DNA of 40,000 nt. It comes from Anaerolineaceae bacterium. GTDB taxonomy: Bacteria; Chloroflexota; Anaerolineae; Aggregatilineales; Phototrophicaceae. The position numbers and the translations under genes were made by a program. The stretch covers positions 17,767-57,766 of the forward strand of contig JACKCF010000002.1 of assembly GCA_020634165.1 (NCBI GenBank), written 5' to 3'. Below the pieces are notes generated by a model. The model ran no database searches. It saw only the letters and a list, made by a program, of their open reading frames with translations, and was not told where the DNA came from. Of the stretch, positions 14,037-35,694 are shown piece by piece. The number at the start of each line of letters is the position of its first letter. Position 1 is the stretch's first letter.

Positions 14037-14038
14037 AG

Positions 14039-17498: not shown

Positions 17499-17501
17499 CC
17501 C

Positions 17502-20090: not shown

Positions 20091-20131
20091 CTTATGGAGT
20101 AAACAGGATTATAACCGAATCCTGACGTGGC

Positions 20132-20194
20132 AGAACATTTCATATCAGAACGTTTGAGCTATACTCCAGTTGTTATAACAAGAACGTTTGATCT
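20132..20194. promoter_or_regulatory. three AGAAC-N4-type half-palindromes (candidate LexA/SOS boxes) upstream of imuA
   Basis: AGAACATTTCATAT (20132-20145), AGAACGTTTGAGCT (20147-20160) and AGAACGTTTGATCT (20181-20194). The last is one mismatch from AGAAC-N4-GTTCT. All lie 5' of the preferred imuA start at 20250. Confidence 0.5.
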
Positions 20195-20249
20195 ATCGGA
20201 AACCGGTTTGCATTGGAACCGGGTCAGTTTTGTTTTGCCGGAAGCCACC

Positions 20250-20927
20250 ATGAGCACTGTCACCGCCCGATCCGAGGCACTCGAAAAGACCATTCAGCAG
20301 CTGCAGCGCCAGTTCGGCCAGCAGGTGATTGCTGCTGCAAGCCGCTTGTCGCAGGCTGAGGTGTTGCACACAGGCGTCACTGCCCTGGATACGGCGCTGG
20401 GTGGCGGATTGGCAGTCGGCCAAATCAGCGAGCTGCGTGCGCTACCCGGTCATGGGGCAACCTCACTGGCGATGCGCCTCATTGCTTCGGCACAGGCAGC
20501 AGGCCGAATCGGTATTTTCATGGATCTGGCAGATGCCTTCGATGCCAGCGCTGCCCACCATGCTCATGTCGATTTTATGCGTTCGCACTTCCTGCTGGTA
20601 CAGCCGCCTTCGCCAACAGATGCCTTCATTTTTGTGCAGGCCGTGCTCCATGCCCGCATTCCCGGTATCGTCATCGTGCGACCGCATCCGCAGCAGCCCT
20701 TGCCCCAGCTGCCCTGGTCGCGGCTGAAAGGAGCGCTCGCCAGTTTGCCGCTGGTCGTCGTCGTGATTCAGCCGCCTGCATCAACCGAAATCGAGGCCGC
20801 AGGCACGCGCCTGCTTTTGAAGCGCGTATCCGGTGACAATACGGTGCAGATTCGCATTCTGCGCCATCCATTGGGCAAAGCCGGGCAGGTAGTAAGAGTT
20901 CCCCTGTTGCCGGAAGGGTCGCGCTGA
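20250..20927 (+). CDS. imuA: ImuA-like RecA-fold protein of the imuA-imuB-dnaE2 mutagenesis cassette
   Basis: LDTALGGGLAVGQISELRALPGHGATSLAMRLIA is a RecA/ImuA-type P-loop region. Its stop overlaps the imuB start (TGATG). I prefer the ATG at 20250 (MSTVTAR...) because the candidate SOS boxes lie within the longer track ORF. Confidence 0.75.
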   Translation: MSTVTARSEALEKTIQQLQRQFGQQVIAAASRLSQAEVLHTGVTALDTALGGGLAVGQISELRALPGHGATSLAMRLIASAQAAGRIGIFMDLADAFDASAAHHAHVDFMRSHFLLVQPPSPTDAFIFVQAVLHARIPGIVIVRPHPQQPLPQLPWSRLKGALASLPLVVVVIQPPASTEIEAAGTRLLLKRVSGDNTVQIRILRHPLGKAGQVVRVPLLPEGSR

Positions 20928-22108
20928 TGTTATGTATCACTCTGACCCACTTCGCGGCGGCAGTCGAGAGCTTTCAGCATCCCGAACTGGCCGACAAGCC
21001 GCTCATCCTGACGCAGAAGCGCAAGCGTGGGCATGTCGTCGCGGCAGTCAATCAGTTGGCATGGGAGGCCGGTGTGCGACCCTTCCAACCACTGCATCAG
21101 GCCAAAACGCGCTGCACCAATGCCGAAATTCGCTCGGCCAATCATCTGGCGTATGAGCGGCTTCTGCTGGAAATCGCCGCAGGGATTCATCCGCTGGTCA
21201 ACAAGCTGGAACCGGAATATCAGCCGACGGTCGCCAGCATCTACCTGGATATGCCCTACGACCGCGTGCTGCTGGCCGCTATCGGACGCATCATTCAGGA
21301 GAAGGTCGGCCTGCGAGTGAAGTTCGGACGCAGCGAGAAAAAATTCCCGGCGCGGGTGGCTTCGGCGGTGAGCGGAGCCGGGCAGTGTGCGACGGTCACA
21401 CCGGGTGATGAAGGGCGTTTTCTGTCGCCCTATCGGGTGGCACTGCTGCCGCTACCGATCAGCATGGCACGGAAATTGCAACTGGTGGGCGTAACAACAT
21501 TGGGTGAACTGGCGAAGCTGCCGCGCACGGAAGTGTGGCAGCAGTTCGGGCGCGAGGGACGACGTATGCACGAGATGGCCTGCGGCGAGGATGTGCGTCC
21601 GATTGTGGCCTGGACGCCGGAAAAAGTGCTGTCCATCAGTGAAGAATTCGAGGATGGCATCGCGGATCGGCAGATGCTGAACCGTCATTTGCAGCGTTTG
21701 GCGCAGCCGCTACTGGATCAACTGGCGGGCAAGGAAGCGCATCGCCTGACGATCACCGTGGAAACAGCCGACGGTCAACGATGGGATGAGGAGCGGCAGC
21801 CGGAAGATGGCATCAAGGCCAACAATCCCTTCTTTCTGCTGCGGCAGATACAGTATGCCCTCGACAGCCATCCGGTGGAAACACCCGTCACCCGCGTGAC
21901 GTTGCGCCTGTCACGCCTGAAAGATCCGCTGCCAGTGCAGCTATCGCTGTTTGATGAACCCTCGGACAAGGTCAAACTGCCGAACCTGATTCCACTGTGG
22001 CTGGAGCGTCAGCCGACGCTGACCGTGTGCGGTGTGGATCTCAAACAGCCCGATCACATCGTCGCTGAAGAGCGCTTCAAGATTGAGCAGATCAGCGGGG
22101 CATCATGA
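20927..22108 (+). CDS. imuB: ImuB, Y-family DNA polymerase-like protein (catalytically degenerate)
   Basis: Y-family fold with an N-terminus MLCITLTHFAAAVE, where DinB-type enzymes have DxDxF(F/Y). Position between imuA and dnaE2. Confidence 0.85.
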   Translation: MLCITLTHFAAAVESFQHPELADKPLILTQKRKRGHVVAAVNQLAWEAGVRPFQPLHQAKTRCTNAEIRSANHLAYERLLLEIAAGIHPLVNKLEPEYQPTVASIYLDMPYDRVLLAAIGRIIQEKVGLRVKFGRSEKKFPARVASAVSGAGQCATVTPGDEGRFLSPYRVALLPLPISMARKLQLVGVTTLGELAKLPRTEVWQQFGREGRRMHEMACGEDVRPIVAWTPEKVLSISEEFEDGIADRQMLNRHLQRLAQPLLDQLAGKEAHRLTITVETADGQRWDEERQPEDGIKANNPFFLLRQIQYALDSHPVETPVTRVTLRLSRLKDPLPVQLSLFDEPSDKVKLPNLIPLWLERQPTLTVCGVDLKQPDHIVAEERFKIEQISGAS

Positions 22109-22365
22109 GTTACCTGTGGCTTCCGGGCATTCCGATCCGGGTGTGGCTCAGATATGGTGTGCCCAATCGTTTTCAGTGGGAACGGCAGTCCTTTTTTGTG
22201 GCGCACATCGTCGATAGCTGGCGCGTTGATACCGGCTGGTGGCGGCTGGAACGGCGTGCCTGTCAGTACTGGCAGATCACGACCACGACCCGGGTGCTGA
22301 TGGTCATCTACCGCGATGAACTGTCGCTCGAACCCGCATGGTTTCTGGAACAACTGGTAGATTAG
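22105..22365 (+). CDS. small conserved-looking protein between imuB and dnaE2 (Trp-rich; possibly a DUF6504-type imuB-associated protein)
   Basis: 86 aa with an ATGA overlap with the imuB stop; ends 3 nt before the GTG start of dnaE2. WRVDTGWWRLERRACQYWQI motif. The family name is from memory only. Confidence 0.5.
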   Translation: MSYLWLPGIPIRVWLRYGVPNRFQWERQSFFVAHIVDSWRVDTGWWRLERRACQYWQITTTTRVLMVIYRDELSLEPAWFLEQLVD

Positions 22366-22367
22366 TT

Positions 22368-25300
22368 GTGGGTTACGTCGAACTGCACTGCCATTCGTGC
22401 TACAGCCTGAAGGATGGCGCATCCACCCCAGTGGAACTGGTTCAGCAAGCCAAAGCGCTGGGCATGAGCGCCCTCGCCCTGACTGATCACAATGCGGTTT
22501 ATGGCGCGGTCGAATTCTGCAAAGCGGCGACCGAGGTCGGCATCAAACCGATCTTTGGTGCGGAAATGACGCTTGATTCCGGGCATCACCTGACGCTACT
22601 GGTGAAAAATCTGCGCGGCTGGTCGAACCTCGGACACCTGATTACACTGGCACAATTCAATGCGCCCAAGGGCGAAGCACTCATTGCGCTGGATACCTTT
22701 TTCGGACATACCGATGGCCTGATTGCCCTCACTGGCTGTCGAAATGGATTATTGGCAGAACATCTTATAAGGAAAGATCGAGCAGCAACAAAGTCGGCGC
22801 TGAAAGACCTGATTGCCCTGTTTGGCAAGGATAATCTATGGGTGGAATTGCAGAGGCATCATCTGCCGGGGGAGAAGGCACTCATTCAGCAGCTTGTGGC
22901 GCTGGCGAAGTCGGAGCAGGTTGGTATCGTGGCGACCAACAACGTGCATTACGCCACCCCGGAGCGCAAACCGCTGCAGGATGTGCTGGTGTGCGTCGAG
23001 CACCTGACCAACCTTGATGATGCTCAGGCACGCGGCCTGCTGCGCATCAACCACGAATACCACCTCAAATCAGTCCGGCAGATGAGTGACCTGTTCGCCG
23101 ACTATCCCGAAGCGATCACCAACACACAGCTCATCGCCGATCAGTGCAACTTTATTCCTGAATATGGTTATCAGGACTTGCCGGAATTCCCCACGCCGAA
23201 CTATCTGCCAGCAGAAGTATATCTGCGCCAGTTATGCGAAGCAGCGTTGGCAAAGCGCTTTTCAGGCGAGACCAGCAAGGTTCGGGCACAGTTGGAACAT
23301 GAACTGGACGTCATCCGCGAATCGAGGCTGTCGAATTATTTTCTCATTGTGTGGGACATCGTGAATTATGCCGGCAGCCAGAACATCCTGTGTCAGGGAC
23401 GCGGCTCGGCGGCGAATTCGCTGGTGGCCTATTTGCTGCACATCACACCGATTGACCCTATTGAGCATGGCCTGGTCTTCGAGCGTTTTCTGTCGAAGGA
23501 ACGGCAGGTCACACCTGATATCGACATCGACTTTGACAGTGCGAGGCGCGAGGAAGTCATCCAGTATGTGATGCAGCGCTATGGCACCGATCATGCCGCC
23601 ATGACCTGCACCTTTATCACCTACCGCACCAAGAGTGCCCTGCGTGATGTGGGACGGGCGCTGGGTGTGCCGCCGGAATGGATCGAACGCGCTTCGAAGG
23701 CCGTGCGCGGCTACCGGGGCGCCAATCGCAAGCCTCTGAGCTTCATCGACGAGACGGTCGAGGAACCGCTGGATGATTCGGTTGTGGAACAAATTTACGC
23801 GCTGGTCGAACAGCTTCAGGGACTGCCACGCCACATTGGGCAGCACAACGGCGGCATGGTCATCATGCGCGACATCCTCAGCCAGCGCGTGCCGATTGAA
23901 CCGGCCACCATGCAGGATCGTGTCGTCATTCAGTGGGACAAGGAAGCCCTGGAAACGGTCAATCTGGTCAAGTTTGACATTCTGGGGCTGGGCATGCTGG
24001 CGGCCATTCAGGAAGCATCGGACACAGTGCTGCGGCTGACGGGCAAACCGTTCCGCATTGAAGACCTGACCTTCGACGATCCAGCGATTTTCAGAATGAT
24101 CGCCGAAGCCGACACTATCGGCCTGTTTCAGGTGGAGAGCCGCGCACAGGCCCAACTTTTGCCGCGCTTCCAGCCAAAAAACTTTAGCGACATTATTATC
24201 GCCATCTCGCTGATTCGACCGGGGCCGATTCAGGGTGGTATGGTGCATCCCCTGCTTCGGCGACGTACCGGACGTGAGGAGGTAACGTATCTGTATGATG
24301 CCCTGCGCCCTTCGCTGGAAGAGACCTATGGCGTCATTGTGTGGCAGGAACAGGTGCTGCTTGTTGCACGCGACATCGCTGGATTCACAGCAGGCGAAGG
24401 TGAGCAGCTTCGACGGGCGCTGGGCGCGAAAAACGGTTATGAGCGCGTCGAATCGTTCCATGACCGCTTCATCATGGGCGCAGCCAGCAAGGGCATTTCT
24501 GCCGAAATTGCTGAAGCCATCTTTGACCAGCTTCGTGGCTTCGGGGGCTATTCCTTCGCCAAATCGCACGCCGCCAGCTTCGCCGTGCTGGTGTACGCCT
24601 CGGCGTACTTGCGGAAGTATCACCCGGCGGCTTTTTACTGCGCCCTGATCAACGCCCAGCCGATGGGCTTCTGGTCGGTCGATGTGCTGACCAACGATGC
24701 GGCTCGGCTTGGTGTGAAAACGCTCAAGGTAGACATCAACCGCAGCGTAGCCAGAACCGAGGTGCTGGATGCGAAAAATATCCGGCTGGGCCTGACGCAG
24801 GTGAAAAGCATCGGCGAATCGAGTGCAGATCGCATCCTTGCGGCACGCGAGAAAGGCAGCTTCAACAGCCTCGAGGATCTATGCCGACGCACACAGCTCC
24901 CTGAACGCAAGATCGAGAATCTGATTCAGGCCGGTGCGGTCGATGCGTGGGGCATTCCGAGGCGCAAGTTGATCTGGCAGGCGGGACTCTACAAGGCCGA
25001 TGAGGATGAACTCGATCTGGCGTATCTGGCGGAGGAACTGGCACTGCCCTTGCAGCATGGGGTGCAGGAGCAGGCGATGGAGTACAGTGTGACCGGCATC
25101 AACACGGGCGACCACCTGATGAGTTATGCCCGCGACTGGCTGAGGCAGCGCGACACCCTCGCCAGTTATGAACTGGCGGACTGCTCCCATAATTCGATTG
25201 TGCGGGTGGCGGGGCAGAACCGTGTGGCGCAGTCGCCGCAGACCGCGAAGGGCATGACCTTCCTGACGCTGGAGGATGAATGGGGCATGATGAACATTGT

Positions 25301-25466
25301 CGTGCGTCCCGACATCTTCGGACGCTATGCCCGCATCATTCTGGATAGTCCGCTGCTGCTGGTGAAAGGCCTGCTGGAGCGTGGCGATGGTGGCACGATC
25401 AATGTGCTCGCGCATCAGTTTGCTGCGCTGCCGATGCAGACCTTACTGTATTTATGTCCGCGTTGA
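22368..25466 (+). CDS. dnaE2: error-prone DNA polymerase III alpha subunit DnaE2
   Basis: PHP domain start (V/M)GYVELHCHSCYSLKDGAS and polymerase core motifs (FDILGLGML, GLFQVES, RPGP). ~1030 aa. Alternative ATG at 22338 overlaps the preceding small ORF. Confidence 0.92.
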   Translation: MGYVELHCHSCYSLKDGASTPVELVQQAKALGMSALALTDHNAVYGAVEFCKAATEVGIKPIFGAEMTLDSGHHLTLLVKNLRGWSNLGHLITLAQFNAPKGEALIALDTFFGHTDGLIALTGCRNGLLAEHLIRKDRAATKSALKDLIALFGKDNLWVELQRHHLPGEKALIQQLVALAKSEQVGIVATNNVHYATPERKPLQDVLVCVEHLTNLDDAQARGLLRINHEYHLKSVRQMSDLFADYPEAITNTQLIADQCNFIPEYGYQDLPEFPTPNYLPAEVYLRQLCEAALAKRFSGETSKVRAQLEHELDVIRESRLSNYFLIVWDIVNYAGSQNILCQGRGSAANSLVAYLLHITPIDPIEHGLVFERFLSKERQVTPDIDIDFDSARREEVIQYVMQRYGTDHAAMTCTFITYRTKSALRDVGRALGVPPEWIERASKAVRGYRGANRKPLSFIDETVEEPLDDSVVEQIYALVEQLQGLPRHIGQHNGGMVIMRDILSQRVPIEPATMQDRVVIQWDKEALETVNLVKFDILGLGMLAAIQEASDTVLRLTGKPFRIEDLTFDDPAIFRMIAEADTIGLFQVESRAQAQLLPRFQPKNFSDIIIAISLIRPGPIQGGMVHPLLRRRTGREEVTYLYDALRPSLEETYGVIVWQEQVLLVARDIAGFTAGEGEQLRRALGAKNGYERVESFHDRFIMGAASKGISAEIAEAIFDQLRGFGGYSFAKSHAASFAVLVYASAYLRKYHPAAFYCALINAQPMGFWSVDVLTNDAARLGVKTLKVDINRSVARTEVLDAKNIRLGLTQVKSIGESSADRILAAREKGSFNSLEDLCRRTQLPERKIENLIQAGAVDAWGIPRRKLIWQAGLYKADEDELDLAYLAEELALPLQHGVQEQAMEYSVTGINTGDHLMSYARDWLRQRDTLASYELADCSHNSIVRVAGQNRVAQSPQTAKGMTFLTLEDEWGMMNIVVRPDIFGRYARIILDSPLLLVKGLLERGDGGTINVLAHQFAALPMQTLLYLCPR

Positions 25467-25525: not shown

Positions 25526-27286
25526 ATGAATGTCATCCGACTATTCATGTGGGGTTATCAAGACTCATTCTGGATAGAAGCGAAACTTGCCGCAGAAAAG
25601 GTCTTCAATCAACTTGACTCTGACTTCAAACCGCAGGTTTTTCTCCTAGGTATACTTTCGGAAGATTTGGAGGAGCGATATCCTGTCTGTTTTGAGCCAG
25701 AAGAGTGTGGATTGCAGGAAGAGTGGTTTACTGAAATACAAGAGCAAGCCAAACATTATGAGGCAATCGACGAAGAAAGACACTATTTTCACTCCCATCC
25801 ATTGTCGCAAGAAAAACACGAGCAACACCTCAAGCTCAAGGCTTTGCGCAAAGCCTTACTGGAAATATTGAATTCACACAATAGCGTTAGTACAAATTAT
25901 GAGGTTTTTTGCTCTTATCCAATTTTGGTAAGCGGATATCGTGTTTTTGTTGTACTGAAGCTCAATGAAGCTTGCTATCAAAAATATTATGCACTAAATA
26001 CTACCCATTTGAGACGAGATAAAATACCTACTTCCTTGATTGACGCAGTGATTTTAGAGTATTTTGCTGCTTGTCAGAGAGCTCTAATGCTACCTAATCC
26101 GGGAGCAGGACTTAAAACCTTAGAACGAGAACCGACGGAGATTATCAACTTGGCTGGTCGATTCTTAATGTATACGCCAGCGCTAAAGAGTGAAGCTGGC
26201 AACAATATTGCTTCATATACGTTATTTGAAGACTGCAACACCATTTCATCTCTGACTTACGAAGGGGCAGAAGGTCGTGGAAAGATAATTCTCGCTCCAC
26301 CCAATCATCCTAATGTTTCGATTGATATTTTATTTGCCAAACCTGTTGCTTTCAAGAATTTTGGTGCAGTACGAAAACTACTAGAACTTTGCGGTCATCG
26401 TGAAAGCCTCATTGCTGATTCAACCTCAATTTATGGATTAGGTTACGTATCAGGCACTTACGATGTGAGGTATGAAAACTTGTTTCAAATCAACTTCACT
26501 CGGCAGCATTCATGGGAACTGGTTCATGCTCAACATACTATGATGCGCGTAAAATATCGCCAAGCAAATATCCCAAGTTCGGTAATTAATGAAACCAAAT
26601 TCAGAACAGACGCTGGACGTATTTTCCCAAACATTGAACCCAAACAAATTGAAGCGCTGCTTGAACTAATTGTCGCCGCGACTAAACAAAAACACGGGGC
26701 TCTGGTCATAATTGCTGAAGACGCAGAACAAGAAGCAACCAGACTTGCAAATGAATCAACTGTCATACAACCTATCCCATTAACTCCTGAACTGATGAGT
26801 TTGGTTACGGCTATTGATGGAGCTGTTCTTGTTTCACCTGATGCAACCTGTTTTGCAATAGGAGTTATATTAGATGGCCGAGCTACGCCAAAGGGTAACC
26901 CCGCAAGAGGTGCTCGCTATAATTCAGCGATTCGTTACGTTGAAAGTCAAAATCAAAGCCTTGCAATTGTAGTTTCCGAGGATGGCGGAGTCAATTTAAT
27001 TCCTAATCTAATGCCACAAATACGCAAGTCTGAACTTATACGACACATCGAAATTATAGGGGAAGTACACACTTCTGAGAAGCGTGATCGCATAGCTTAT
27101 TATGCATCTGAAGAATGGCTAAGATCACATCAATTTTATCTCTCGAAAGAACAATGCGACAAATTAAATATGATGATGAGAGAGATAACACGGGGTTTCC
27201 TACGTGAAAGTGGATGGGGTATTGAACACAATGATCTTCAACCTCATGAAGATATGAATGAATCATATTTCATGATCGAAGATTGA
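25526..27286 (+). CDS. 586-aa protein with unassigned N-terminal ~370 aa and a C-terminal diadenylate-cyclase-like (DisA_N/DAC) domain with altered catalytic motif
   Basis: HGALVIIAEDAE (from aa 390), IDGAVLV (D431-G432-A433), GARYNSAIRY (R464-Y465-N466 where DACs have RHR) and AIVVSEDGGVNLI align to the DAC pattern GALIVI / HDGA / GTRHRAA / VSEETG. Confidence 0.6.
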   Translation: MNVIRLFMWGYQDSFWIEAKLAAEKVFNQLDSDFKPQVFLLGILSEDLEERYPVCFEPEECGLQEEWFTEIQEQAKHYEAIDEERHYFHSHPLSQEKHEQHLKLKALRKALLEILNSHNSVSTNYEVFCSYPILVSGYRVFVVLKLNEACYQKYYALNTTHLRRDKIPTSLIDAVILEYFAACQRALMLPNPGAGLKTLEREPTEIINLAGRFLMYTPALKSEAGNNIASYTLFEDCNTISSLTYEGAEGRGKIILAPPNHPNVSIDILFAKPVAFKNFGAVRKLLELCGHRESLIADSTSIYGLGYVSGTYDVRYENLFQINFTRQHSWELVHAQHTMMRVKYRQANIPSSVINETKFRTDAGRIFPNIEPKQIEALLELIVAATKQKHGALVIIAEDAEQEATRLANESTVIQPIPLTPELMSLVTAIDGAVLVSPDATCFAIGVILDGRATPKGNPARGARYNSAIRYVESQNQSLAIVVSEDGGVNLIPNLMPQIRKSELIRHIEIIGEVHTSEKRDRIAYYASEEWLRSHQFYLSKEQCDKLNMMMREITRGFLRESGWGIEHNDLQPHEDMNESYFMIED

Positions 27287-27615: not shown

Positions 27616-29499
27616 ATGCCGAGTTTCACGGTTGAGTACAATTCAAAGGGACGCTTGGGACAATTCAGCTTTGAGAATGGGATAACTAATATCTCAACAC
27701 CTTTTATGTTCCCAGTGGCTTCAACAGTGACTGGCACAACAGCAAATGGGGGCGGAATATGGAAGTATATTCTTCAGGCATATCCAGATACTGATACGGA
27801 TGTTAATCAGGCCCTCATGCGTCGAGGGATGCCCATTCTTTCACAAGCACTTCAGTTCCTGGATTATGGTGTTAGCAAAAACAAAGTTAATCTTTGGCGG
27901 CAACAGTCGATCCGGAAGATGTATAATGAAGCACATAGAATGGACTATAAGGCACCTATTTTTCTTGATTCTGGTGGATTCAAGTTAATGTGGCGTGAAG
28001 GTCTCAATCTTGATGAATATGGGATCAACCTAAGTCCATCAAAAGAAGCACATAGCATCTTATGTCTGCAGCATGACTTGGGTGCGAACATTATTGCCAG
28101 CCTAGATTATCCAATACCCCCCAATCTTGCTCCGTCTGAAGCTAAGCAAAGAATGAAAAGAAGTCGTAGAAATGCTATCACTGTTGCTCGCTATCTGCGG
28201 GATGGAGAATTTTCAAGCTGGAGACCTTTTCTTTACATGCCAGTTCATGGGTTGTCACCGGAAGCAATCTCAGCATATGTAAAAAACCTATTCAATAGCG
28301 TATATACCTATGGGCTTGGTAATGATCCCATCGGAATTGCGGTAGGCTCTCTTGTCCCCCTGCGATTCTCTCGCACAAACCTATATCGGATCATCACAAT
28401 TGTCGATGCCGCAGTAAAAGCAATACCTGCCAAATACCGAGATCGAATCCCTGTACACGTTTTTGGTGTCACAGGAATCTTAATTCCGTTTTTAGCATAC
28501 TGCGGTGTTGATACCTATGATTCAAGTACTTATGTTAAGGAGGCCATTAATCTTAGATACATGCATCCCGATACAAGAGTTGGTCATGCTGTATTGGAAA
28601 TGACAGAAGATGATTTCATTTGCGATTGTGATGTTTGTCGGAATATTAAATTACTGGAATTACAAGAAGCTCTTGCGGCTGAGGGAACGGGCAAACCTTT
28701 AGTCCAATCTGGTCACTACAAAAGTAAATATTATGCTGATATTGCCTTACATAACTTGGAACAAGACTTCAAAATATTACGAGAAACGAGACATGCCATA
28801 AAACAAAATTATATGGCTGAGTTTATCTTGCAAGTGGCTGAGCGATTCCCACGAATGCGATATGCACTTGATGGTCTCTGTGACACTAATAAGGATTTGA
28901 GACTCAAAGCATCCAAACGCATACAACCTGTTATAAAAACAAAAAAAATAACCAAATCGATTGTTTTTCAGACACTTTCTCATACCCCGGATGATTTTAA
29001 TATTGCACATATGAATGGACATATTAACAGATCATATCCTCGTATTCTGTTATTGCTTCCATGCTCGTCAGACAAACCTTATTCTGATTCAAGAACACAT
29101 AAGTACGTTGAAAAGCATATACATGACTATATTCCTGGAATGAGAGATAAAATTCATAAGGTTTCATTGTCAGGGCTCTATGGGCCCGTTCCCGAAGAAT
29201 ATGAAACATGCAAACCTGTACTTGACTATAACTATCGTCTAATTCCGAAAAACGAAGCGCAGATAGAACTAGTCACTACACGGCTTGTTGAATATCTTGA
29301 AATTCACGGTGCAAAATATCTACATTGCGTAGCGTATGCAACGAGTAAGGCTTATCGTTTGGTATTTGAAAAAACAGCAGAACAATACCCATCCCTGACA
29401 CTTTTACCCACTGCTCCCAAGTCTAAACGACTTACAGAGTTTTTCAGAACAAAAAACATCCAAGAATTAGTTAACATGATAAGTGATATGCTTGATTAA
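27616..29499 (+). CDS. TGT/DpdA-like (tRNA- or DNA-guanine transglycosylase family) protein fused to an ArcS-type (DUF5591-like) C-terminal domain
   Basis: TGT motifs FLDSGGF (D118), CGVDTYD (D299, D302) and the Zn site CDCDVC (C336, C338, C341) with a later H in IALHNL. The C-terminal PCSSDKPYSDSRTH (aa 482-495) fits the ArcS motif PC-X3-KPY-X2-S-X2-H. Confidence 0.75.
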   Translation: MPSFTVEYNSKGRLGQFSFENGITNISTPFMFPVASTVTGTTANGGGIWKYILQAYPDTDTDVNQALMRRGMPILSQALQFLDYGVSKNKVNLWRQQSIRKMYNEAHRMDYKAPIFLDSGGFKLMWREGLNLDEYGINLSPSKEAHSILCLQHDLGANIIASLDYPIPPNLAPSEAKQRMKRSRRNAITVARYLRDGEFSSWRPFLYMPVHGLSPEAISAYVKNLFNSVYTYGLGNDPIGIAVGSLVPLRFSRTNLYRIITIVDAAVKAIPAKYRDRIPVHVFGVTGILIPFLAYCGVDTYDSSTYVKEAINLRYMHPDTRVGHAVLEMTEDDFICDCDVCRNIKLLELQEALAAEGTGKPLVQSGHYKSKYYADIALHNLEQDFKILRETRHAIKQNYMAEFILQVAERFPRMRYALDGLCDTNKDLRLKASKRIQPVIKTKKITKSIVFQTLSHTPDDFNIAHMNGHINRSYPRILLLLPCSSDKPYSDSRTHKYVEKHIHDYIPGMRDKIHKVSLSGLYGPVPEEYETCKPVLDYNYRLIPKNEAQIELVTTRLVEYLEIHGAKYLHCVAYATSKAYRLVFEKTAEQYPSLTLLPTAPKSKRLTEFFRTKNIQELVNMISDMLD

Positions 29500-29615: not shown

Positions 29616-32600
29616 ATGGTTAGTAATCAGATTCTTCAAGAAGATTTCGATGCTCTAAAATCATCTTTTTTGCTAATTAATCAGGATAACAATGTTCCCA
29701 CAACAATGTTTGTTGAATCTTATAGTCAAATAGTCCCCTCAAAGACCCGTGTCGAAATTCGTGAAGGTTTGTACATCCCTCGACCATTGGAAGTCGCTCG
29801 AATCCTCCGACATTTGAAACAAAGATTTACCCCAAATGGTAACTATGCTTCCTTGGTAAGTCGAATTCGTGCAGAGATCATACTTCGTGAGCGACCTTAT
29901 CGAAATACAAAACCAGAAGATGTACCACAATCGCTGCGAAATATTGCTGAAATCGGTCGTCTCAATAACATAATTGAGTTTCGTTATTCTGAATTCCAGT
30001 GGCGTGGGTGGCAAATTGTGCTAGAGGCATTAGCAAAATCCCAACTGGGCCAACCCGCAGGAGTAGTGGCGACAGCACCAACAGGTTCTGGTAAAACAGA
30101 AACATTCATGTTGCCCATCATCACTGACACTGTAGAAGCGGCAGCGCGAGGTGCAGAAAGACATTTTGTTTTTATTTATCCGAGGCGTGCGCTAGCCCAA
30201 GACCAATTATCTAGGGTTCTACGTTACGTAAAAAATGCGTGTAATCACTTTAAAATGCCCGATCATCGCATAATTGTTGGCATTCAATTCACAGGCATTG
30301 CTTCAAGTAGAGAATCCACGTTACGAAACCGCAATATATTTCACAACAGGCGCAGTTTTAAGTTGTTAGATAGATGTCCGTGGTGTGGCAAACGTAAACA
30401 ATTGATTTTTCAAACACAGGGAGAATATTCATACCTACAGTGTTCTGAGTGTGAGAATCGAGTCGCTGTTTCACTCTCTAAAAACGATCACAGCTCATTA
30501 AATCCTAATTTGATGATTACAACTGCTGAGTCCTTAGACAATATGTATATGGATTGGGATTTTCGTGATTATATACCGAAGATCGACGGTATTATTTTTG
30601 ACGAGGCACATTTATTCAACCAAGTATATGGAGCTCATATCCATCACCTGATTCAGCGCGTTAGAAATATTGTCCGCGAAATCTCTCGAAAGGAACTGCT
30701 ACTAATTGCTTCTAGTGCTACCATTTCTGAGCCTGCTGATTTTGCTAATCGCTTATTTTATGGTAATGAGAATCCTCCTAGTAATATTTATTCCATTGAC
30801 GCCAATCAATATGAAATGAACCCAAGTGGTATCGAAACATTTTTCTTTTTGCAGACTGATAATGCGCGACAAACGATGTCGACAATGATTCAAACGGTGA
30901 TGGCAACAATGCATGGAGCAATTAATGATGATCGACGGGCTATCATATTCGCAAGCTCATTGGACACTGTGGGACGCTTAAAAGTACAGTTTGACGATGC
31001 CGAGATAAACCAACAACTTTGGAGGATGAGGATCAACAACCAAGATATTAATGTTTTTCAATTTGAGAATGTATCTTGTCCGCGCACAACACCGTATATT
31101 TGCTCACTATATGATATGGGAGAATGCTGGCGTGGCATCTTAGGCGGAATACAATGCCATGAGAATCCAATATTGGGGATGCGTTCCAGTAGTTTGGAGA
31201 CACAAACAATTACAGGAAATACACAAGGCAGCCGATCACTTGATAAGCCAGTTATCATCGGAACATCTGCCTTAGAAGTAGGCATTGATGATCCTACAGT
31301 ACAGACAACTTTTCATTATCGACCTCCTCGGACAGTCTTTGATTTTATCCAAAGAAGAGGCCGGGCAGGACGGAAAGAAAATGATACTGCTTATACAGTG
31401 ATGGTCTTGGGACAAGATTCAACAGATCATTTCTATCTGGTGCGTCGTCATCGCCTAATTGCTGGTCAATACTCTCTCCCACTCAACCCTAACAATCCAG
31501 TAGTTACTCGAATTCATGAATTACTTAGTCAAAGTCGGGCTGAAGGTTTTCGACTCGTCAGTAGCAACGGAAGTGAATTGAATGGTACATGGCTTTGGCT
31601 TGTTCATACACTCCAAAATTCGTCAATAGTTTCTTCGGCGCATGAAGCGCTACTGAACGAAGTGTTACGGGCGCGCAGCTTCGATGTAAAGAAAGCAAAA
31701 TTACTGAAATGGATTAACGAAAATATTGAAGCTCTTGAAAATCAACTGGCTGATCGTGGTATGTTCAGGACAAATAGATATCCTACACTTCCTATGCTTG
31801 TGGCTGTGTTTGACGATATTGTAGCGGCGTATGATTCTTGGGTTGAAGAAGAAGATGTAACAACACAAGATACAGCAAAAAAGTTAATAAGTTATCAGCA
31901 TAGACTAGGGGATATGTATTCGGCTTTTGATGGTAGAGCATACGATCGCAGGCGGTTTACAGAGGAGTTTGATGTTGTCAGTCAAACATTACAACGGATG
32001 ATCGCTAACATACAGGAAGAACAGCGGGAAGTTCGAGACAGATTTCGTGAGACAAGGGCATGGTATGATTTCTTTTTTCATCTACGTAAATTATATGATC
32101 AGGATTGGATTTTTTACACTTTTTCATATGTAGTGAAGTATATTTATCAAGCACTATTCTTCTTAAATCGCGGATTTGATAACCAAACGCAAAATGAGAT
32201 TGATGTATATGTTCCCGATAATTATTTCGGCAACATAACTCCAATGCGTGTTCATATTGGTGATCAGAATAAGCGAACAACAGAGCCGATAACTTATTTG
32301 GAATCGTTATTTTATCCCTATCGTATTAGCTACCGTTATGCAAGTGATGCCGCCCACACCCAGCTTGCTCCAATGTATATGCTAGATAGCCGCAGCAGAG
32401 AAATAATTGGACCTAACCAAGTAAGAATAAAGCCGGCGGCCTATGGTTTGTCGATTGCAGATCCAGAAAACCCTGACTATTCAGTTCGCAAAGTTCGTGA
32501 AATCCGTGTTATGGAGCTTCAGGCTGATGCCCGTCAAAACATTAGCATGTGTCAAACTTGTTTCCGCACTTACGATATAGATTTTGACCAAATGAATTGT

Positions 32601-33473
32601 GAATGTGGCGGCGATATTGCTCAGGGTTCAATATTTGTGGAAAAAACATATACAAGACAAGGGATACACGAGCAACAACGGCGAATAAATATAGGTAATA
32701 GTTTTAGCATAGTACCTGCTCTGGATACGTGGACAAAAGTTAACGGTTCCCAAGTTACGTTTACACCTTTGAATGGCGGACGAAGAATTCGGTTCAATGC
32801 TTGGTTGAGCCCTAGCTTATATTTTTCTATCCCAACTAAGGGTATTTCTTGGAGGGTGCGTGCCATTGCTAATCATGTTGAGGAAAGCCTTCATGCTGCC
32901 GCCCATGTCTTGGTTAAGGCAATGGCATCAGTTGTAGGCGTGCGTGAAGATCAATTAGCATATAGTTGGCAGTCTGAGAGTCAGGAAGTAGTAGTTTGGG
33001 AAAAATATGAGGGTGGTGCAGGGCTATGTGAGATATTTGCAGATCGTTTGCAACGTAATCCTTTAGAAGTCTATCAGGAAATGGTCTCTGTTGTAGCATG
33101 TCCCATATATTTATCAGAACAAAAAGGGCATTTGTGGGAGACAGATGATGAACTGCGAAATTACTTATCTCATGAATTTGGACTTGCCCCTGAAACAGCA
33201 TTACTTAAAGAAATTATCGATAACACCATATCGGAATCGAGATCGAATACTTCCGAGTTGGTCTGCACAGATAATGATGGTTGTCCAGTATGTATTACAT
33301 CCATCACGAATGCTCAGGATGATCAACCGAGTCGTTTGATCGCTTGGAGGTTAATCGGTGATTTAATAAAGGTATTTGAAGAGAGCGAATGGAAAGAAAT
33401 TACCCCAGAACAATTCGCCCCTGTAGTGTGGGTAGATAACAATGCGGAACTAATATATGTCTTGGTCTTCTAA
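29616..33473 (+). CDS. large DEAD/DEAH-box (YprA/MrfA-like) helicase with inserted zinc ribbon and C-terminal DUF1998-like 4-Cys domain
   Basis: Walker A APTGSGKT (K160), motif Ia YPRRALAQDQ, FDEAH (D329-H332), SSAT and QRRGRAGR. Zn ribbon CPWC...CSEC (aa 254-279) lies between motifs I and II. C-terminal CQTC (979-982), NCECGG, WEKYEGGAGL (1128-1137) and CPVC (1223-1226). Confidence 0.8.
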   Translation: MVSNQILQEDFDALKSSFLLINQDNNVPTTMFVESYSQIVPSKTRVEIREGLYIPRPLEVARILRHLKQRFTPNGNYASLVSRIRAEIILRERPYRNTKPEDVPQSLRNIAEIGRLNNIIEFRYSEFQWRGWQIVLEALAKSQLGQPAGVVATAPTGSGKTETFMLPIITDTVEAAARGAERHFVFIYPRRALAQDQLSRVLRYVKNACNHFKMPDHRIIVGIQFTGIASSRESTLRNRNIFHNRRSFKLLDRCPWCGKRKQLIFQTQGEYSYLQCSECENRVAVSLSKNDHSSLNPNLMITTAESLDNMYMDWDFRDYIPKIDGIIFDEAHLFNQVYGAHIHHLIQRVRNIVREISRKELLLIASSATISEPADFANRLFYGNENPPSNIYSIDANQYEMNPSGIETFFFLQTDNARQTMSTMIQTVMATMHGAINDDRRAIIFASSLDTVGRLKVQFDDAEINQQLWRMRINNQDINVFQFENVSCPRTTPYICSLYDMGECWRGILGGIQCHENPILGMRSSSLETQTITGNTQGSRSLDKPVIIGTSALEVGIDDPTVQTTFHYRPPRTVFDFIQRRGRAGRKENDTAYTVMVLGQDSTDHFYLVRRHRLIAGQYSLPLNPNNPVVTRIHELLSQSRAEGFRLVSSNGSELNGTWLWLVHTLQNSSIVSSAHEALLNEVLRARSFDVKKAKLLKWINENIEALENQLADRGMFRTNRYPTLPMLVAVFDDIVAAYDSWVEEEDVTTQDTAKKLISYQHRLGDMYSAFDGRAYDRRRFTEEFDVVSQTLQRMIANIQEEQREVRDRFRETRAWYDFFFHLRKLYDQDWIFYTFSYVVKYIYQALFFLNRGFDNQTQNEIDVYVPDNYFGNITPMRVHIGDQNKRTTEPITYLESLFYPYRISYRYASDAAHTQLAPMYMLDSRSREIIGPNQVRIKPAAYGLSIADPENPDYSVRKVREIRVMELQADARQNISMCQTCFRTYDIDFDQMNCECGGDIAQGSIFVEKTYTRQGIHEQQRRINIGNSFSIVPALDTWTKVNGSQVTFTPLNGGRRIRFNAWLSPSLYFSIPTKGISWRVRAIANHVEESLHAAAHVLVKAMASVVGVREDQLAYSWQSESQEVVVWEKYEGGAGLCEIFADRLQRNPLEVYQEMVSVVACPIYLSEQKGHLWETDDELRNYLSHEFGLAPETALLKEIIDNTISESRSNTSELVCTDNDGCPVCITSITNAQDDQPSRLIAWRLIGDLIKVFEESEWKEITPEQFAPVVWVDNNAELIYVLVF

Positions 33474-33942
33474 GTCGTTACAATGGATGATTCCTGGTAT
33501 CTTTTTAACTGCAAAGAAGTCAAGCAAAATAGTTATAATGAGTCCTTGGATTGATGATGTGGAATTACTTATATATTCTTGGAATGGGCGAGAACAATTA
33601 GCTGGCAATGTTTTACTTTCAAATGTAATGAAATGGCTGCATAGGAATCGCAATAATCATTTTCTAGCTTACGTACGGACAGATCAACTGTATCCTAGGA
33701 TTAATCCTCGGTTAAATCGTGTACAAAGTCGAGCCTCTTCAGCTTTGGAAGTTCGAGATATTCAATATTTGCACGCGAAATTACTAATCACAGATGCAAT
33801 GGTTTTAGAAACTTCTGCGAATTTTCTGACTTATAGCATTCACAGAAATGTCGAAAGTCTCTATATTAGAAAAAATCCGTTACAAAATGCATCAGCTTTT
33901 GCTCAGGACTTCATTACTAGACACGGCCACAGTCAACTATGA
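33457..33942 (+). CDS. phospholipase D-family (single HKD) nuclease-like protein
   Basis: HKD motif LHAKLLITDAMVLETSANF (H106, K108) and an N-terminal IVIMSPWI strand typical of PLD/Nuc. Overlaps the helicase 3' end; an alternative start is at 33487. Confidence 0.75.
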   Translation: MSWSSKSLQWMIPGIFLTAKKSSKIVIMSPWIDDVELLIYSWNGREQLAGNVLLSNVMKWLHRNRNNHFLAYVRTDQLYPRINPRLNRVQSRASSALEVRDIQYLHAKLLITDAMVLETSANFLTYSIHRNVESLYIRKNPLQNASAFAQDFITRHGHSQL

Positions 33943-34346
33943 AGATTTATGTTGCAGGACCACTGTTCAATACTATGGAGCGCAGCTACTTAGAGGAAAT
34001 CGCAACTGCACTTGAGAATGCAGGTTACAATACATTTCTTCCGCACAGAGATGTTGGGTTATTAGATAGTATTGATGATGTTAATCGAGAGCATATATTC
34101 CGCGCAGATATGACTGCGTTGGATGACTGCGATATTTGTGTTGCATTACTAACTGGACCTGATCATGATTCAGGTACCAGTGCAGAAATTGGCTATATGT
34201 ATGCCAAAGGAAAACCATGTTTTGGTATCACTGATGATATGCGATGGATGAATAATCTCATTTGGGGGCTTTGTAACTCAGGCAACAATATCTGTACATC
34301 AATCGAGACATGCATTCAACTGCTAAAAACGCAAATTAGTCAGTAG
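33939..34346 (+). CDS. nucleoside 2-deoxyribosyltransferase-family protein
   Basis: MKIYVAGPLFN N-terminus and DSGTSAEIGYMYAKGKP (catalytic-Glu context) match the NDT/Rcl family pattern. ATGA overlap with the PLD gene. Confidence 0.75.
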   Translation: MKIYVAGPLFNTMERSYLEEIATALENAGYNTFLPHRDVGLLDSIDDVNREHIFRADMTALDDCDICVALLTGPDHDSGTSAEIGYMYAKGKPCFGITDDMRWMNNLIWGLCNSGNNICTSIETCIQLLKTQISQ

Positions 34347-35013
34347 TAATTAAAGGATTAAGCTGCGTATTAGCGTTGATAGCATCGATACCCTCCTGCC
34401 TTTTTATAAAGTTTACTGTCAGATAAGTTAGGGGAGTTGCCAGAGACTCATACAATGTTTTGAACAACCATTGTGTAATGACAGCCAATACCAAATCATT
34501 GGTTGCCATGGTTCCAGCGAAAGCAATCACAATAAATATTAGAGAATCAAAGCCCTGACCAACAACAGTAGAAGTTATAGTCCTAGACCATAGCCAGCGT
34601 CCTTTTGTTAGTTTTTTCATTCTATCGAGGATATACGCATTCAAGAATTCGCCAATTAGATATGCGATAAATGAAGCAAAAAGTAGGCGAGGAGTGTAAC
34701 CAAGGATTCGTTCATATGCTGCTTGTCCGTCCCAGAAATTGGCAGATGGAAGAAGTTGTCCTGCGACAATGCCTGCCACAGCAACAAGATTGCAGAAAAA
34801 ACCAAGCCATATTACTCGACGTGCATTTCGAAATCCATAGACCTCGGTAAGAATATCACCTACGATGTAGCTGATTGGAAAAATGACTATGCCCGCGGGC
34901 ATGATAAAGCCCCAGATATCCACCAGCTTTACTGCCGCAATATTGGCAGTGATTAGAGATGTAATAAATAGACCTGCAATTGATACAAACCAAATTGAAT
35001 ATTTGTTTGACAT
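34336..35013 (-). CDS. yhhQ: queuosine-precursor (preQ0/preQ1) transporter, YhhQ/VUT family
   Basis: Six-TM protein with ITANIAAVKLV...PAGIVIFPISYIVGDILTEVYG, characteristic of YhhQ (DUF165). Confidence 0.8.
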   Translation of the reverse strand: MSNKYSIWFVSIAGLFITSLITANIAAVKLVDIWGFIMPAGIVIFPISYIVGDILTEVYGFRNARRVIWLGFFCNLVAVAGIVAGQLLPSANFWDGQAAYERILGYTPRLLFASFIAYLIGEFLNAYILDRMKKLTKGRWLWSRTITSTVVGQGFDSLIFIVIAFAGTMATNDLVLAVITQWLFKTLYESLATPLTYLTVNFIKRQEGIDAINANTQLNPLITTD

Positions 35014-35025
35014 GTAGTCTCCGGT

Positions 35026-35694
35026 TTACTGATAATGTAGTGGATCCTTGATCCCCACATCGTGAAAGGCTTTCAGTCGTTCAGCACATGTAGGACAGTT
35101 TCCACAAGCTAAATCTTCGCCTCTATAACAAGACCAAGTTTTACTATAATCTACTCCAATCTTTAATCCAATCTGCAGAATATCTGTTTTTGTGAAATTG
35201 ACAAACGGTGCTCTGATAAGAATTTGATTTGGCTGCAAATCGTAAACGGCATTTACTCTAGACGTGAATTCAGATGTCGTATCCCAATAACCATAGATAT
35301 CGTGTTTCTGAGCACCATAAAAAACTTCTTGCACTCCTAGTGTCTCTGCCCATGCAATTGCAAGTGATAGAAATATCATGTTTCGATTAGGTACATAGGT
35401 CGAAGGCGGTACTTCTTTGGAGACATGTGTTGCTGAAGGAATCTCCATATCTTTATTGACCAAAGAAGACTTGAGCCATAGATCCTGAAGAGGTGATAGA
35501 TCAACAATCATATGGAGTAACCCAAGAGATTGGGTGTGCATTTGAGCAAATCGCACCTCCTTGTTATGACGTTGACCATACTTGAATGTAATAACTGCAG
35601 GGATTCGCTTTCTTTCATGCAAGTAATACAGCAATGTTGTGCTGTCAAATCCACCGCTTAATATCACAACCGAATCAGACCTACCTTCATTCAT
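35026..35694 (-). CDS. queC: 7-cyano-7-deazaguanine (preQ0) synthase QueC (divergent)
   Basis: PP-loop VVILSGGFDSTT, YVPNRN and the C-terminal Zn cluster CYRGEDLACGNCPTCAERL. It has YWDTTSEF where canonical QueC has YPDCRPEF. Confidence 0.85.
   Translation of the reverse strand: MNEGRSDSVVILSGGFDSTTLLYYLHERKRIPAVITFKYGQRHNKEVRFAQMHTQSLGLLHMIVDLSPLQDLWLKSSLVNKDMEIPSATHVSKEVPPSTYVPNRNMIFLSLAIAWAETLGVQEVFYGAQKHDIYGYWDTTSEFTSRVNAVYDLQPNQILIRAPFVNFTKTDILQIGLKIGVDYSKTWSCYRGEDLACGNCPTCAERLKAFHDVGIKDPLHYQ

Follow-up and report, generated by a model that had tools for sequence, protein, structure and literature searches.

The 40-kb stretch of Anaerolineaceae DNA analyzed here (contig JACKCF010000002.1, positions 17,767 to 57,766; referred to as the window) carries a gene in which a tRNA-guanine transglycosylase (TGT) domain is fused to a DUF5591 domain of the type known from the archaeosine synthase ArcS. 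An initial annotation, made from the letters of this DNA, had read the open reading frame (ORF) as a single polypeptide of this composition, and this is borne out: the frame opens with ATG, encodes 627 amino acids (aa), and matches both Pfam domains. We judge it rather probable that the protein is a bifunctional two-step DNA modification module, acting first in the insertion of the 7-deazaguanine base preQ0 and then in the derivatization of its nitrile, and that it belongs to a Dpd-like restriction-modification system. The fusion gene and the features within it are the following.

27616 to 29499 (+): TGT-DUF5591 fusion gene, ATG start, 627 aa; proposed bifunctional 7-deazaguanine transglycosylase/ArcS-like nitrile-modifying enzyme
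27907 to 28851 (+): TGT catalytic domain (TIM-barrel plus zinc), aa 98 to 412; PF01702, E 2.1e-20
27967 to 27981 (+): DSGGF, aa 118 to 122, by regular-expression check; D118 aligned to ArcTGT D95
28105 to 28107 (+): D164 (in LDYP), aligned to ArcTGT D130
28504 to 28521 (+): GVDTYD, aa 297 to 302 (D299, D302); D302 aligned to ArcTGT D249
28621 to 28638 (+): CDCDVC zinc motif (C336, C338, C341), aligned to ArcTGT C279/C281/C284
28750 to 28752 (+): H379, predicted fourth zinc ligand, aligned to P. horikoshii ArcTGT H307
29038 to 29385 (+): DUF5591/ArcS C1-type Rossmann-like domain, aa 475 to 590; PF17884, E 4.4e-15
29059 to 29100 (+): PCSSDKPYSDSRTH, aa 482 to 495, the ArcS signature PC-X3-KPY-X2-S-X2-H, by regular-expression check

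The motif and domain matches are far more than chance would yield. On the fusion protein, PF01702 scores 73.5 bits against a gathering score of 26.3 and PF17884 56.3 bits against 26, and the TGT superfamily model TIGR00449 of NCBIfam likewise exceeds its cutoff (71.4 versus 47.6 bits). The narrower NCBIfam models stay under theirs, with 94.7 bits for the ArcTGT equivalog TIGR00432 (TgtA; cutoff, 350) and 85.6 and 38.3 bits for the ArcS models NF040592 and NF053620 (cutoffs, 440 and 600), and PADLOC gives no match to the protein. Pfam detects neither a TGT_C2 nor a PUA domain, and in the structural model described below the DUF5591 domain is the protein's end. An identical sequence, from an Anaerolineaceae metagenome-assembled genome, was met in a search of 5.8 billion proteins. 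The TGT hallmarks listed in the initial annotation (DSGGF, GVDxYD with D299/D302, and CxCxxC at 336 to 341) are all found where it had placed them, and the motif check likewise recovers the PC-X3-KPY-X2-S-X2-H signature at 482 to 495. Its ArcS-like reading of the C terminus, which it would have given up had no profile matched, agrees with the DUF5591 and ArcS profile matches obtained.

A domain-wise comparison by hidden Markov model (HMM) and structure, as proposed in the initial annotation, relates the TGT half to ArcTGT and the C-terminal half to AF0587, DpdA profiles giving no match. A profile of 15 family members, searched against the PDB sequences in full, ranked P. horikoshii ArcTGT first (1IQ8; E 6.1e-22), making it the nearest relative of known structure for the TGT half. 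Counted along the printed alignment, D118, D164, and D302 of the fusion protein are equivalent to D95, D130, and D249 of ArcTGT, and C336, C338, C341, and H379 to C279, C281, C284, and H307. We take D95 and D249 to be the catalytic pair of ArcTGT, D130 its base-recognition aspartate, and the three cysteines and the histidine its zinc ligands; the "downstream His" of the initial annotation thus corresponds to H379. The second PDB match of the profile, on the C-terminal half, was AF0587 (2Q07; E 4.1e-7), a protein composed of DUF5591 and PUA, and bacterial TGTs reached E values of about 1e-5 or worse.

The structural models lead to the same two relatives. An AlphaFold2 (AF2) model of the full protein, built from a 72-sequence alignment (pLDDT, 91.6; pTM, 0.89), again has ArcTGT as its top Foldseek match in the PDB (E 3.4e-20). 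The C-terminal 182 aa, modeled separately (pLDDT, 91.1), have AF0587 2Q07 as their sole significant neighbor (E 1.3e-6; 23% identity), the remaining PDB matches being generic Rossmann-like folds, all with E > 0.008. Foldseek also aligned two proteins of Vibrio phage nt-1 with the full model, DpdA2 on the TGT half (E 3.6e-9) and ArcS2 (R9TEI9) on the DUF5591 half (E 2.4e-3). By tblastn the DUF5591 half matches the viral ArcS homologues of STSV1/2 at 1e-5, and the TGT half has no phage match.

Two further observations concern the protein as a whole. BFVD entry A0A2I7SB39, a 596-aa viral protein, aligns with the full-length model over 612 columns (E 8e-6; TM about 0.37) and may be a viral full-length analogue. 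Furthermore, residues 39 to 51 (window 27730 to 27768) form an almost invariant, family-specific insert, TGTTA(R/N)GGGxWKY, in a stretch that exceeds its ArcTGT counterpart by about 25 residues (profile 36 to 101 versus chain residues 41 to 81). This insert might be a nucleic-acid-contacting element.

The fusion family and canonical ArcS

ArcTGT and ArcS are paralogues, and ArcS, too, has a TGT-like N-domain (PMC5699537, PMC10516641), so that a combination of TGT and DUF5591 alone would be ordinary. The ArcS domain definitions used here are those of the same two papers. The initial annotation had stressed the meeting of the two signatures in one protein; that much is not unusual, but the intact TGT catalytic residues are. 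We searched the DUF5591 domain alone against 1.84 billion cluster representatives and obtained just 219 clusters at E ≤ 1e-3. The top matches were mostly 600- to 700-aa proteins with a C-terminal domain, that is, the fusion family, with shorter proteins in between. Among the weaker matches (E about 1e-6 to 1e-5) were proteins of about 180 to 200 aa and 575- to 660-aa proteins with the domain in mid-position, which by Pfam have the canonical ArcS architecture of DUF5591, TGT_C2, and PUA with an absent or partial TGT match. Aligned with nine ArcS-type representatives, the window protein shares the block PCSxxKPYSxSxxH column for column with all nine, and none of the nine keeps the equivalents of DSGG (D118/S119), LDYP (D164), or the G244-S245 loop; the zinc motif is missing in several of them. 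Since canonical ArcS representatives lack the TGT catalytic residues, the fusion protein is not simply an ArcS. It represents a distinct family, which combines an ArcS center with a TGT that is catalytically intact as predicted from its residues and is devoid of C2 and PUA.

This family comprises at least 497 clusters among the 5.8 billion proteins searched. All 120 homologues listed contain both domains and are about 580 to 740 aa long, and those that are named among the matches listed are called only "tRNA-guanine transglycosylase" or "7-cyano-7-deazaguanine tRNA-ribosyltransferase." In a search of one genome each of 185,579 species, a relative is encoded in 94 stretches, about 0.05%; the counts below rest on 80 of these 94 loci (L001 and onward). 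Carriers among the 80 are Chloroflexota, Cyanobacteria, many Poribacteria, Planctomycetota, Symbiobacteriaceae, and two Halobacteria. No published description of the family was found, in a literature search of limited coverage that does not prove absence, and a full-text search for "DUF5591," also of limited coverage, returned only the 2023 phage paper.

Conservation was followed in the 72-sequence alignment (40 to 67% identity to the query) and in 77 full-length members from the 80 loci, haloarchaea included (identity down to about 29%). Invariant in the alignment are D118, S119, G120, G121, D164, D299, D302, C336, C338, C341, and H379 in the TGT half and P482, C483, K487, P488, Y489, S492, and H495 in the DUF5591 half. 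Likewise, D118, S119, D164, D302, the four zinc ligands, C483, K487, P488, Y489, and S492 show no substitutions in any of the 77. The invariance of both residue sets across 72 to 77 members from six phyla indicates that both sites are under selection; the fusion family thus has two centers, active as predicted from their residues, that are conserved together. Four loci (L069, L071, L073, L074) have the gene as two ORFs that overlap or adjoin each other (e.g., 420 plus 349 aa); these are probably frameshifts or assembly errors and not natural TGT/DUF5591 splits.

Cassette and island in the window

Five genes extend the cassette downstream of the fusion gene.

29616 to 33473 (+): DpdJ-like YprA-family helicase, 1285 aa, with DEAD/DEAH, Helicase_C, and MrfA Zn-binding (DUF1998) domains; Pfam, PADLOC, NCBIfam
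33457 to 33942 (+): small PLD-family (DpdK-like) nuclease, 161 aa; Pfam, PADLOC, NCBIfam
33939 to 34346 (+): nucleoside 2-deoxyribosyltransferase-family (NDT) protein; PF05014, E 1.4e-24
34336 to 35013 (-): YhhQ-type queuosine-precursor (preQ0/preQ1) transporter; TIGR00697, 136 bits versus cutoff 51; Vut_1
35026 to 35694 (-): QueC, 7-cyano-7-deazaguanine (preQ0) synthase; TIGR00364, 182 bits versus cutoff 150

The helicase/PLD module to which the initial annotation had pointed does adjoin the fusion gene, separated from it by 116 nt. The stop of the helicase gene overlaps the PLD gene by 17 nt, the PLD gene overlaps the NDT gene by 4 nt, and the YhhQ and QueC genes run convergently on the opposite strand. 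The helicase has the motifs GSGKT157 and DEAH329 and best matches DpdJ (PADLOC, 1.8e-55; NCBIfam, 180.6 bits, far under the cutoff of 800). With its HxKxxxxD motif intact at aa 106 to 113, the PLD protein best matches DpdK (PADLOC, 6.8e-11; NCBIfam, 41.6 bits, far under the equivalog cutoff of 100). QueC is a true equivalog by its NCBIfam score.

In the closest relative locus (L001; 67% identity), the six genes for the fusion protein, helicase, PLD, NDT, YhhQ, and QueC recur in identical order, flanked by a primase/LexA-like gene set and an integrase. In the window, the region from 25.5 to 35.7 kb has a GC content of 0.39 to 0.45 versus 0.53 to 0.58 on either side. This recurrence between the primase/LexA-like set and the integrase, together with the low-GC block, suggests that the cassette moves as a unit. 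Attachment-site repeats or a tRNA integration site were looked for around the low-GC island, and only chance-level short repeats were found; the promoter and terminator scan gave counts at the level of shuffled sequence.

Searches of the window for other members of known pathways were negative. DpdA, a DndB/ParB-like DpdB, and a DUF6884 DpdC were not detected by Pfam, PADLOC, or NCBIfam, Pfam revealed no second TGT-family gene, and QueD, QueE, and FolE are absent from the window. Pfam found no radical SAM family in the 39 longer ORFs of the window, the QueC ORF having been covered by PADLOC and NCBIfam only and some overlapping or shadow ORFs having gone unscanned.

The NDT gene is translationally coupled to the PLD gene and is conserved only in the closest cassette (L001, 16569 to 16988). 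Its product may serve in base salvage, in nucleotide-pool editing, or as an effector. This coupling, present in both operons, would fit an action of the fusion protein on free nucleosides or nucleotides together with the NDT protein, to give a 7-deazaguanine deoxynucleotide that serves as an antiviral small molecule or is incorporated at replication, and T. kodakarensis ArcS does modify preQ0 nucleoside 5'-monophosphate (PMC11298593). However, an NDT gene is found in just 2 of 81 loci, and the TGT-superfamily members in the literature considered act on polymer-bound guanine or, in the case of Cap10, on a protein-linked base, and none on a free nucleoside or nucleotide. We regard such a role in the nucleotide pool as very improbable.

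The low-GC block also holds, directly upstream of the fusion gene, a gene for a DS-2C-like diadenylate cyclase (DAC; window 25526 to 27286, + strand; DACNG, DACNH, and DAC domains), which scores 604.5 bits against NF053872 "DS2_3_antiphage," just below the cutoff of 630. DS-2C cyclases are CBASS-associated c-di-AMP synthases (PMC13092281; 10.64898/2026.08.10.743927). With QueC also nearby and a weak profile match of the fusion family to Cap10 (9NTN; E 0.0087), one may think of nucleobase-protein conjugation or signaling as performed by Cap9/Cap10 in type IV CBASS, here with the fusion protein and QueC acting together on the cyclase. Cap10 has the TGT fold but no zinc site and works on a protein-linked base (10.1101/2025.04.06.647259), whereas the zinc site is invariant in the fusion family. 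DAC homologues are missing from all 80 related loci, 329 bp separate the DAC and fusion genes, the DAC N terminus reads MNVI... and not Gly2 as conjugated in CdnD, and QueC scores as a true QueC equivalog. We hold the chance that the fusion protein works in this way to be remote. Two more specific proposals were rejected. A functional link between DAC and the fusion protein was dropped given the absence of DAC from the related loci, the gap between the genes, and the lack of CBASS genes in the window, where neither a CD-NTase nor a phospholipase was found. Cap10-like protein deazaguanylation was dropped because the zinc site is kept, the window has no CD-NTase by Pfam, and QueC is a true equivalog.

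Elsewhere the window contains RNase H, DUF4238, and sugar-metabolism genes. An ABC-3C-like defense pair is encoded at 12126 to 15736 (-), consisting of an AAA_23/DUF3732 ATPase and a protein with Cap4-nuclease, CTD7, and MC3 domains. The region from 16354 to 25466 (+) holds remnants of a conjugative element (type IV secretion system coupling protein, HU), followed by a high-GC (0.58) mutasome cassette of ImuA-like, ImuB, and DnaE2 genes. The single tRNA called by ARAGORN, a "tRNA-His(atg)" at 25130 to 25213, overlaps the coding sequence of DnaE2, within which it is fully contained, and is thus a probable false positive.

Neighborhoods of the fusion gene in related loci

For the 80 loci, ORFs were called and clustered, and HMMs were built from the clusters. 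In 12 loci the fusion gene has a YprA/DpdJ-like helicase gene no more than 5 kb away, as a rule 20 to 30 nt downstream. Four of the 12 also gave a match to a DpdK-like PLD, and in L014 a DUF4365 nuclease-like protein replaces the PLD. In ten cyanobacterial loci, the genes that immediately follow the fusion gene encode a DUF262/GmrSD_N protein, matching PADLOC NsnA (1.1e-60) and PD-T4-2_A (1.5e-37), and a HEPN protein of the MAE_28990 type; in two loci (L008, L076) there is a YprA-like helicase match besides the DUF262 and HEPN pair. L070 (11903 to 20041) has a genuine DISARM core next to the fusion gene, made up of DrmA (1050 bits), a protein of the MZB/DrmB-like type, and a helicase resembling UvrD; possibly, the fusion protein there takes the place of the DISARM methyltransferase. 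Altogether, a DNA-directed partner is found within 5 kb in 21 of the 27 non-Poribacteria loci, namely, a helicase/nuclease module in 20 and an N6/N4 DNA methylase downstream of the fusion gene in one from Planctomycetota (L078). A further locus with NurA and HerA genes that overlap each other (L002) raises this count to 22, and three of the remaining non-Poribacteria loci are truncated contigs or frameshifted genes.

In Poribacteria, an N6/N4 DNA methylase gene lies just upstream of the fusion gene in 15 loci (which with L078 makes 16 methylase loci), accompanied in six by a MutH-like nuclease. A QueD-like gene adjoins the fusion gene in six loci, five of them from Poribacteria. Poribacteria loci with noted neighbors include L019 to L026, L028, L032, L057, and L068. 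In one Poribacteria clade of 11 loci, the fusion gene is immediately preceded by a QueD-like gene, and a KamA-like radical SAM gene lies three genes downstream of the fusion gene; the combination of methylase and MutH-like nuclease belongs to another clade. This KamA-like gene and QueE in L064 were the only finds in a CxxxCxxC scan for a RaSEA-like partner among neighbors within 6 kb, so that the statement of the initial annotation that such a partner is missing is valid for the window and generally so across the related loci. In the sampled Poribacteria the fusion gene is near-universal, and some genomes have two paralogues (L046/L057, L028/L062, L022/L072).

This distribution bears on the alternative that the fusion protein is a bacterial tRNA enzyme, which would insert preQ0 into tRNA and convert it to an archaeosine-type nucleoside, while the defense genes merely share its island. 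Such a role would be in keeping with the near-universal presence in sampled Poribacteria, often amid housekeeping-like genes and sometimes in two copies per genome, and with an N-terminal half that is closest to tRNA enzymes (1IQ8, 6.1e-22; TIGR00432, 94.7 bits). Also, ArcS accepts minimal substrates (PMC11298593), and the PUA domain is, in the account that PMC6790972 gives of Sabina and Soll 2006, dispensable for G+ formation by ArcTGT. Yet the fusion protein lacks the C2 and PUA domains of ArcTGT and ArcS, and the DNA-directed partners in 21 of 27 non-Poribacteria loci are often only 20 to 260 nt away, to which NurA and HerA of L002 may be added. Moreover, the gene travels in a mobile cassette (integrase in L001, low-GC island here), and its occurrence in about 0.05% of species genomes is unlike that of a housekeeping tRNA modification. 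We consider a tRNA enzyme unlikely.

The two haloarchaeal loci raise a different alternative. In L064 (6776 to 14158; Halorubrum glutamatedens), QueC-QueE-QueD genes are followed by the fusion gene, a DUF6884 (DpdC-type) gene, a second TGT of 420 aa, and a HATPase; this cluster thus has nitrile enzymes of both the ArcS and the DpdC type. In L066 (2313 to 11902; Haloarchaeobius baliensis), the fusion gene is accompanied by genes for a YprA helicase and an HNH protein and diverges from a neighboring gene that Pfam assigns to DpdA. Given these additional TGT-family neighbors, the fusion protein might act only as an ArcS-like nitrile enzyme on preQ0 that is already in DNA, its barrel holding the flipped base, with a DpdA encoded elsewhere or the host Tgt as the inserting enzyme. 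Canonical ArcS, with its TGT-like N-domain devoid of transglycosylase function, provides a model for this. But D118, S119, D164, D302, and the zinc site are invariant, in L064 and L066 as well, and were lost in canonical ArcS; for a mere binding module such invariance is not expected. Furthermore, there is no second TGT-family gene in the 40-kb window, nor any other within 10 kb of the fusion gene in 78 of 80 loci. An enzyme limited to the nitrile step seems improbable to us, slightly more so than a tRNA enzyme.

Proposed function and relation to known systems

We return to the reading of the fusion protein as an inserter and modifier of preQ0 in DNA, for which the following sequence of events may be envisaged. 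PreQ0 would be supplied by the adjacent QueC from host-made CDG or be taken up via the adjacent YhhQ. The ArcTGT-like TIM-barrel would flip out a target guanine, D302 would attack C1', and guanine would leave; with D118 serving in general acid/base catalysis and D164 in base recognition, preQ0 would be installed to give dPreQ0 in DNA. The fused DUF5591 domain, through its PC-X3-KPY-X2-S-X2-H center, would then convert the nitrile of the installed base to an amidine-type derivative. The product would be 2'-deoxyarchaeosine (dG+) or, if the domain behaves like T. kodakarensis ArcS without RaSEA, a lysine-amidine adduct. That enzyme adds lysine onto the nitrile, a preQ0 nucleoside 5'-phosphate being sufficient and tRNA architecture not needed (PMC11298593). 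A lysine-conjugated 7-deazaguanine, which would be new to DNA, is conceivable in the present case because no RaSEA partner was found. Work by Yokogawa et al. in 2019 reportedly showed that RaSEA turns the lysine adduct into G+. Since an ArcS-type domain, and not DpdC (DUF6884), is the component predicted to convert the nitrile, an amidine is a more probable product than the amide dADG.

The co-transcribed DpdJ-like YprA helicase and DpdK-like PLD would attack unmarked DNA, after the paradigm of Dpd and DISARM. Pairing with a restriction-type helicase and nuclease implies self-marking for defense and not anti-restriction, and a phage origin or anti-restriction role was set aside as unsupported, the family having no member in 2.9 million viral contigs and its TGT half no phage match by tblastn. 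Most likely, then, an archaeosine-type mark in the cell's own DNA would serve as the self label of a compact restriction system. The fusion gene would be a portable modification (M) module, coupled elsewhere to DUF262 plus HEPN, NurA plus HerA, or DISARM-type modules. The initial annotation had suggested an action "possibly on DNA," and this is supported, by analogy, by the conserved helicase/nuclease neighborhoods in several phyla and the precedent of phage DpdA2/ArcS2 (PMC10516641). To our reading of the literature such an arrangement has not yet been described in cells. A more far-reaching version has it as the first cellular writer of an archaeosine-type base in chromosomal DNA, with insertion and derivatization in cis, possibly a lysine-amidine product, and a module shared by at least four unrelated restriction machineries (DpdJ/K-like, DUF262 plus HEPN, NurA plus HerA, and DISARM, where it would replace the usual methyltransferase); taken as a whole, this version is tentative and on balance doubtful.

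Several points weigh against a role of the fusion protein in DNA modification. Its TGT half is nearer to the tRNA enzyme ArcTGT than to any DpdA profile; the DpdA models PF23859, NF041059, and PADLOC DpdA gave no match at E ≤ 0.01, and pairwise BLASTP with the DpdA of L066 reached E 0.007 only. A DpdB-like ATPase is absent here, though Salmonella DpdA needs DpdB (PMC10164549). Precursor supply depends on the host or on uptake, since QueD, QueE, and FolE are not in the window. The missing PUA is weak evidence against a tRNA role, as this domain is dispensable for ArcTGT. More than half of the sampled loci, those of Poribacteria, have no obvious restriction (helicase/nuclease) partner, and in the Poribacteria loci other than those described above the fusion gene lies among housekeeping-like genes. 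L066 is the one locus of the 80 with a separate DpdA-family gene and L064 the one with a second TGT, and in these two the fusion protein may not be the inserter, because a second TGT-family gene adjoins. The very low dG+ yields with the nt-1 proteins make it uncertain that dG+ is the true ArcS2-type product in DNA. For every member of the family, a DNA-modifying role is a prediction from sequence.

So far, dPreQ0 and dADG are known as 7-deazaguanine DNA marks of the large Dpd islands, and dG+ and others as marks of phages. If confirmed, the function proposed here would carry archaeosine-type DNA modification beyond phages, to the chromosomes of bacteria and archaea, in a family that would unite all modification steps after preQ0 in one protein exchanged among restriction modules. 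It would provide a minimal, transplantable system of about three genes that installs a charged 7-deazaguanine in DNA as well as a natural experiment on ArcS chemistry without RaSEA, and it would correct a systematic misannotation as tRNA-guanine transglycosylase. Cultured carriers exist, among them Thermogemmatispora carboxidivorans PM5, Spirulina subsalsa, Allocoleopsis franciscana, Planktothrix paucivesiculata PCC 9631, Microseira wollei NIES-4236, and Halorubrum glutamatedens, so that the prediction is directly testable by nucleoside mass spectrometry. The phage nt-1 precedent, which is absent from the initial annotation, lowers the novelty.

Among the tRNA enzymes, archaeal ArcTGT (TgtA, 1IQ8) has all seven of the catalytic and zinc-aligned residues that are present in the fusion protein. 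It also has C2 and PUA tRNA-binding domains, whereas in the fusion protein an ArcS-type Rossmann domain sits at the C1 position, and the TGTTA(R/N)GGGxWKY insert is confined to the fusion family. Archaeal ArcS has the same DUF5591 domain with PC-X3-KPY-X2-S-X2-H, but its N-domain is degenerate and TGT_C2 and PUA are present, whereas the fusion protein keeps the N-domain residues and lacks both domains. In addition, ArcS works with the radical SAM enzyme RaSEA, and no RaSEA-like partner was found for the fusion protein in the window or, generally, in the loci scanned. Cap10 of type IV CBASS resembles the present case in its TGT fold, defense context, and nearby QueC-family gene, but it has no zinc subdomain and a remodeled nucleic-acid surface (10.1101/2025.04.06.647259), whereas the fusion protein keeps the zinc ligands and the window has no CD-NTase.

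In Salmonella, DpdA and the ParB-like ATPase DpdB insert preQ0 into DNA, DpdC converts it to dADG, and dpdD-K restrict (PMC10164549). The Dpd system of Salmonella Montevideo described in that paper resembles the cassette in the window in combining a 7-deazaguanine mark, which for the window is a prediction, with a YprA-family helicase, a small PLD, QueC, and YhhQ. In contrast, the window lacks DpdA/B/C and DpdE-I, its helicase and PLD score far under the DpdJ and DpdK equivalog cutoffs, and its cassette has about 6 genes versus about 15. The Dpd-like BRIGADE systems are reported only from haloarchaea (bioRxiv 10.1101/2025.09.15.676423). They combine a 7-deazaguanine biosynthesis cluster with one or more YprA helicases and a small PLD or PD-(D/E)xK nuclease, as seen in the window, and the haloarchaeal fusion genes of L064 and L066 sit in Dpd/BRIGADE-like clusters. 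However, BRIGADE usually has two YprA helicases and DpdG/DpdHI, whereas the system in the window is bacterial with a single helicase, and the main text and the supplements consulted make no mention of a TGT-DUF5591 protein (10.1101/2025.09.15.676423).

DNA-acting TGTs are diverse and mutually undetectable by sequence (PMC6884629), and the closest functional parallel comes from a virus. DpdA2 of phage nt-1 alone generates dPreQ0 in plasmid DNA in E. coli (PMC10516641), and together with the stand-alone DUF5591 protein ArcS2 it yields dG+ in DNA at 4 to 7 per 10^6 nt (PMC10516641; see also PMC6884629). The nt-1 pair has the same two predicted activities as the fusion protein, with a DUF5591 core that likewise is without C2 and PUA, and both the pair and the cassette in the window are linked to preQ0 supply genes. 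The nt-1 activities reside in two separate viral proteins, of which ArcS2 is small, whereas in the window they would be united in one cellular polypeptide. By this analogy, the fusion protein would fit as a fused cellular counterpart of phage DpdA2 and ArcS2.

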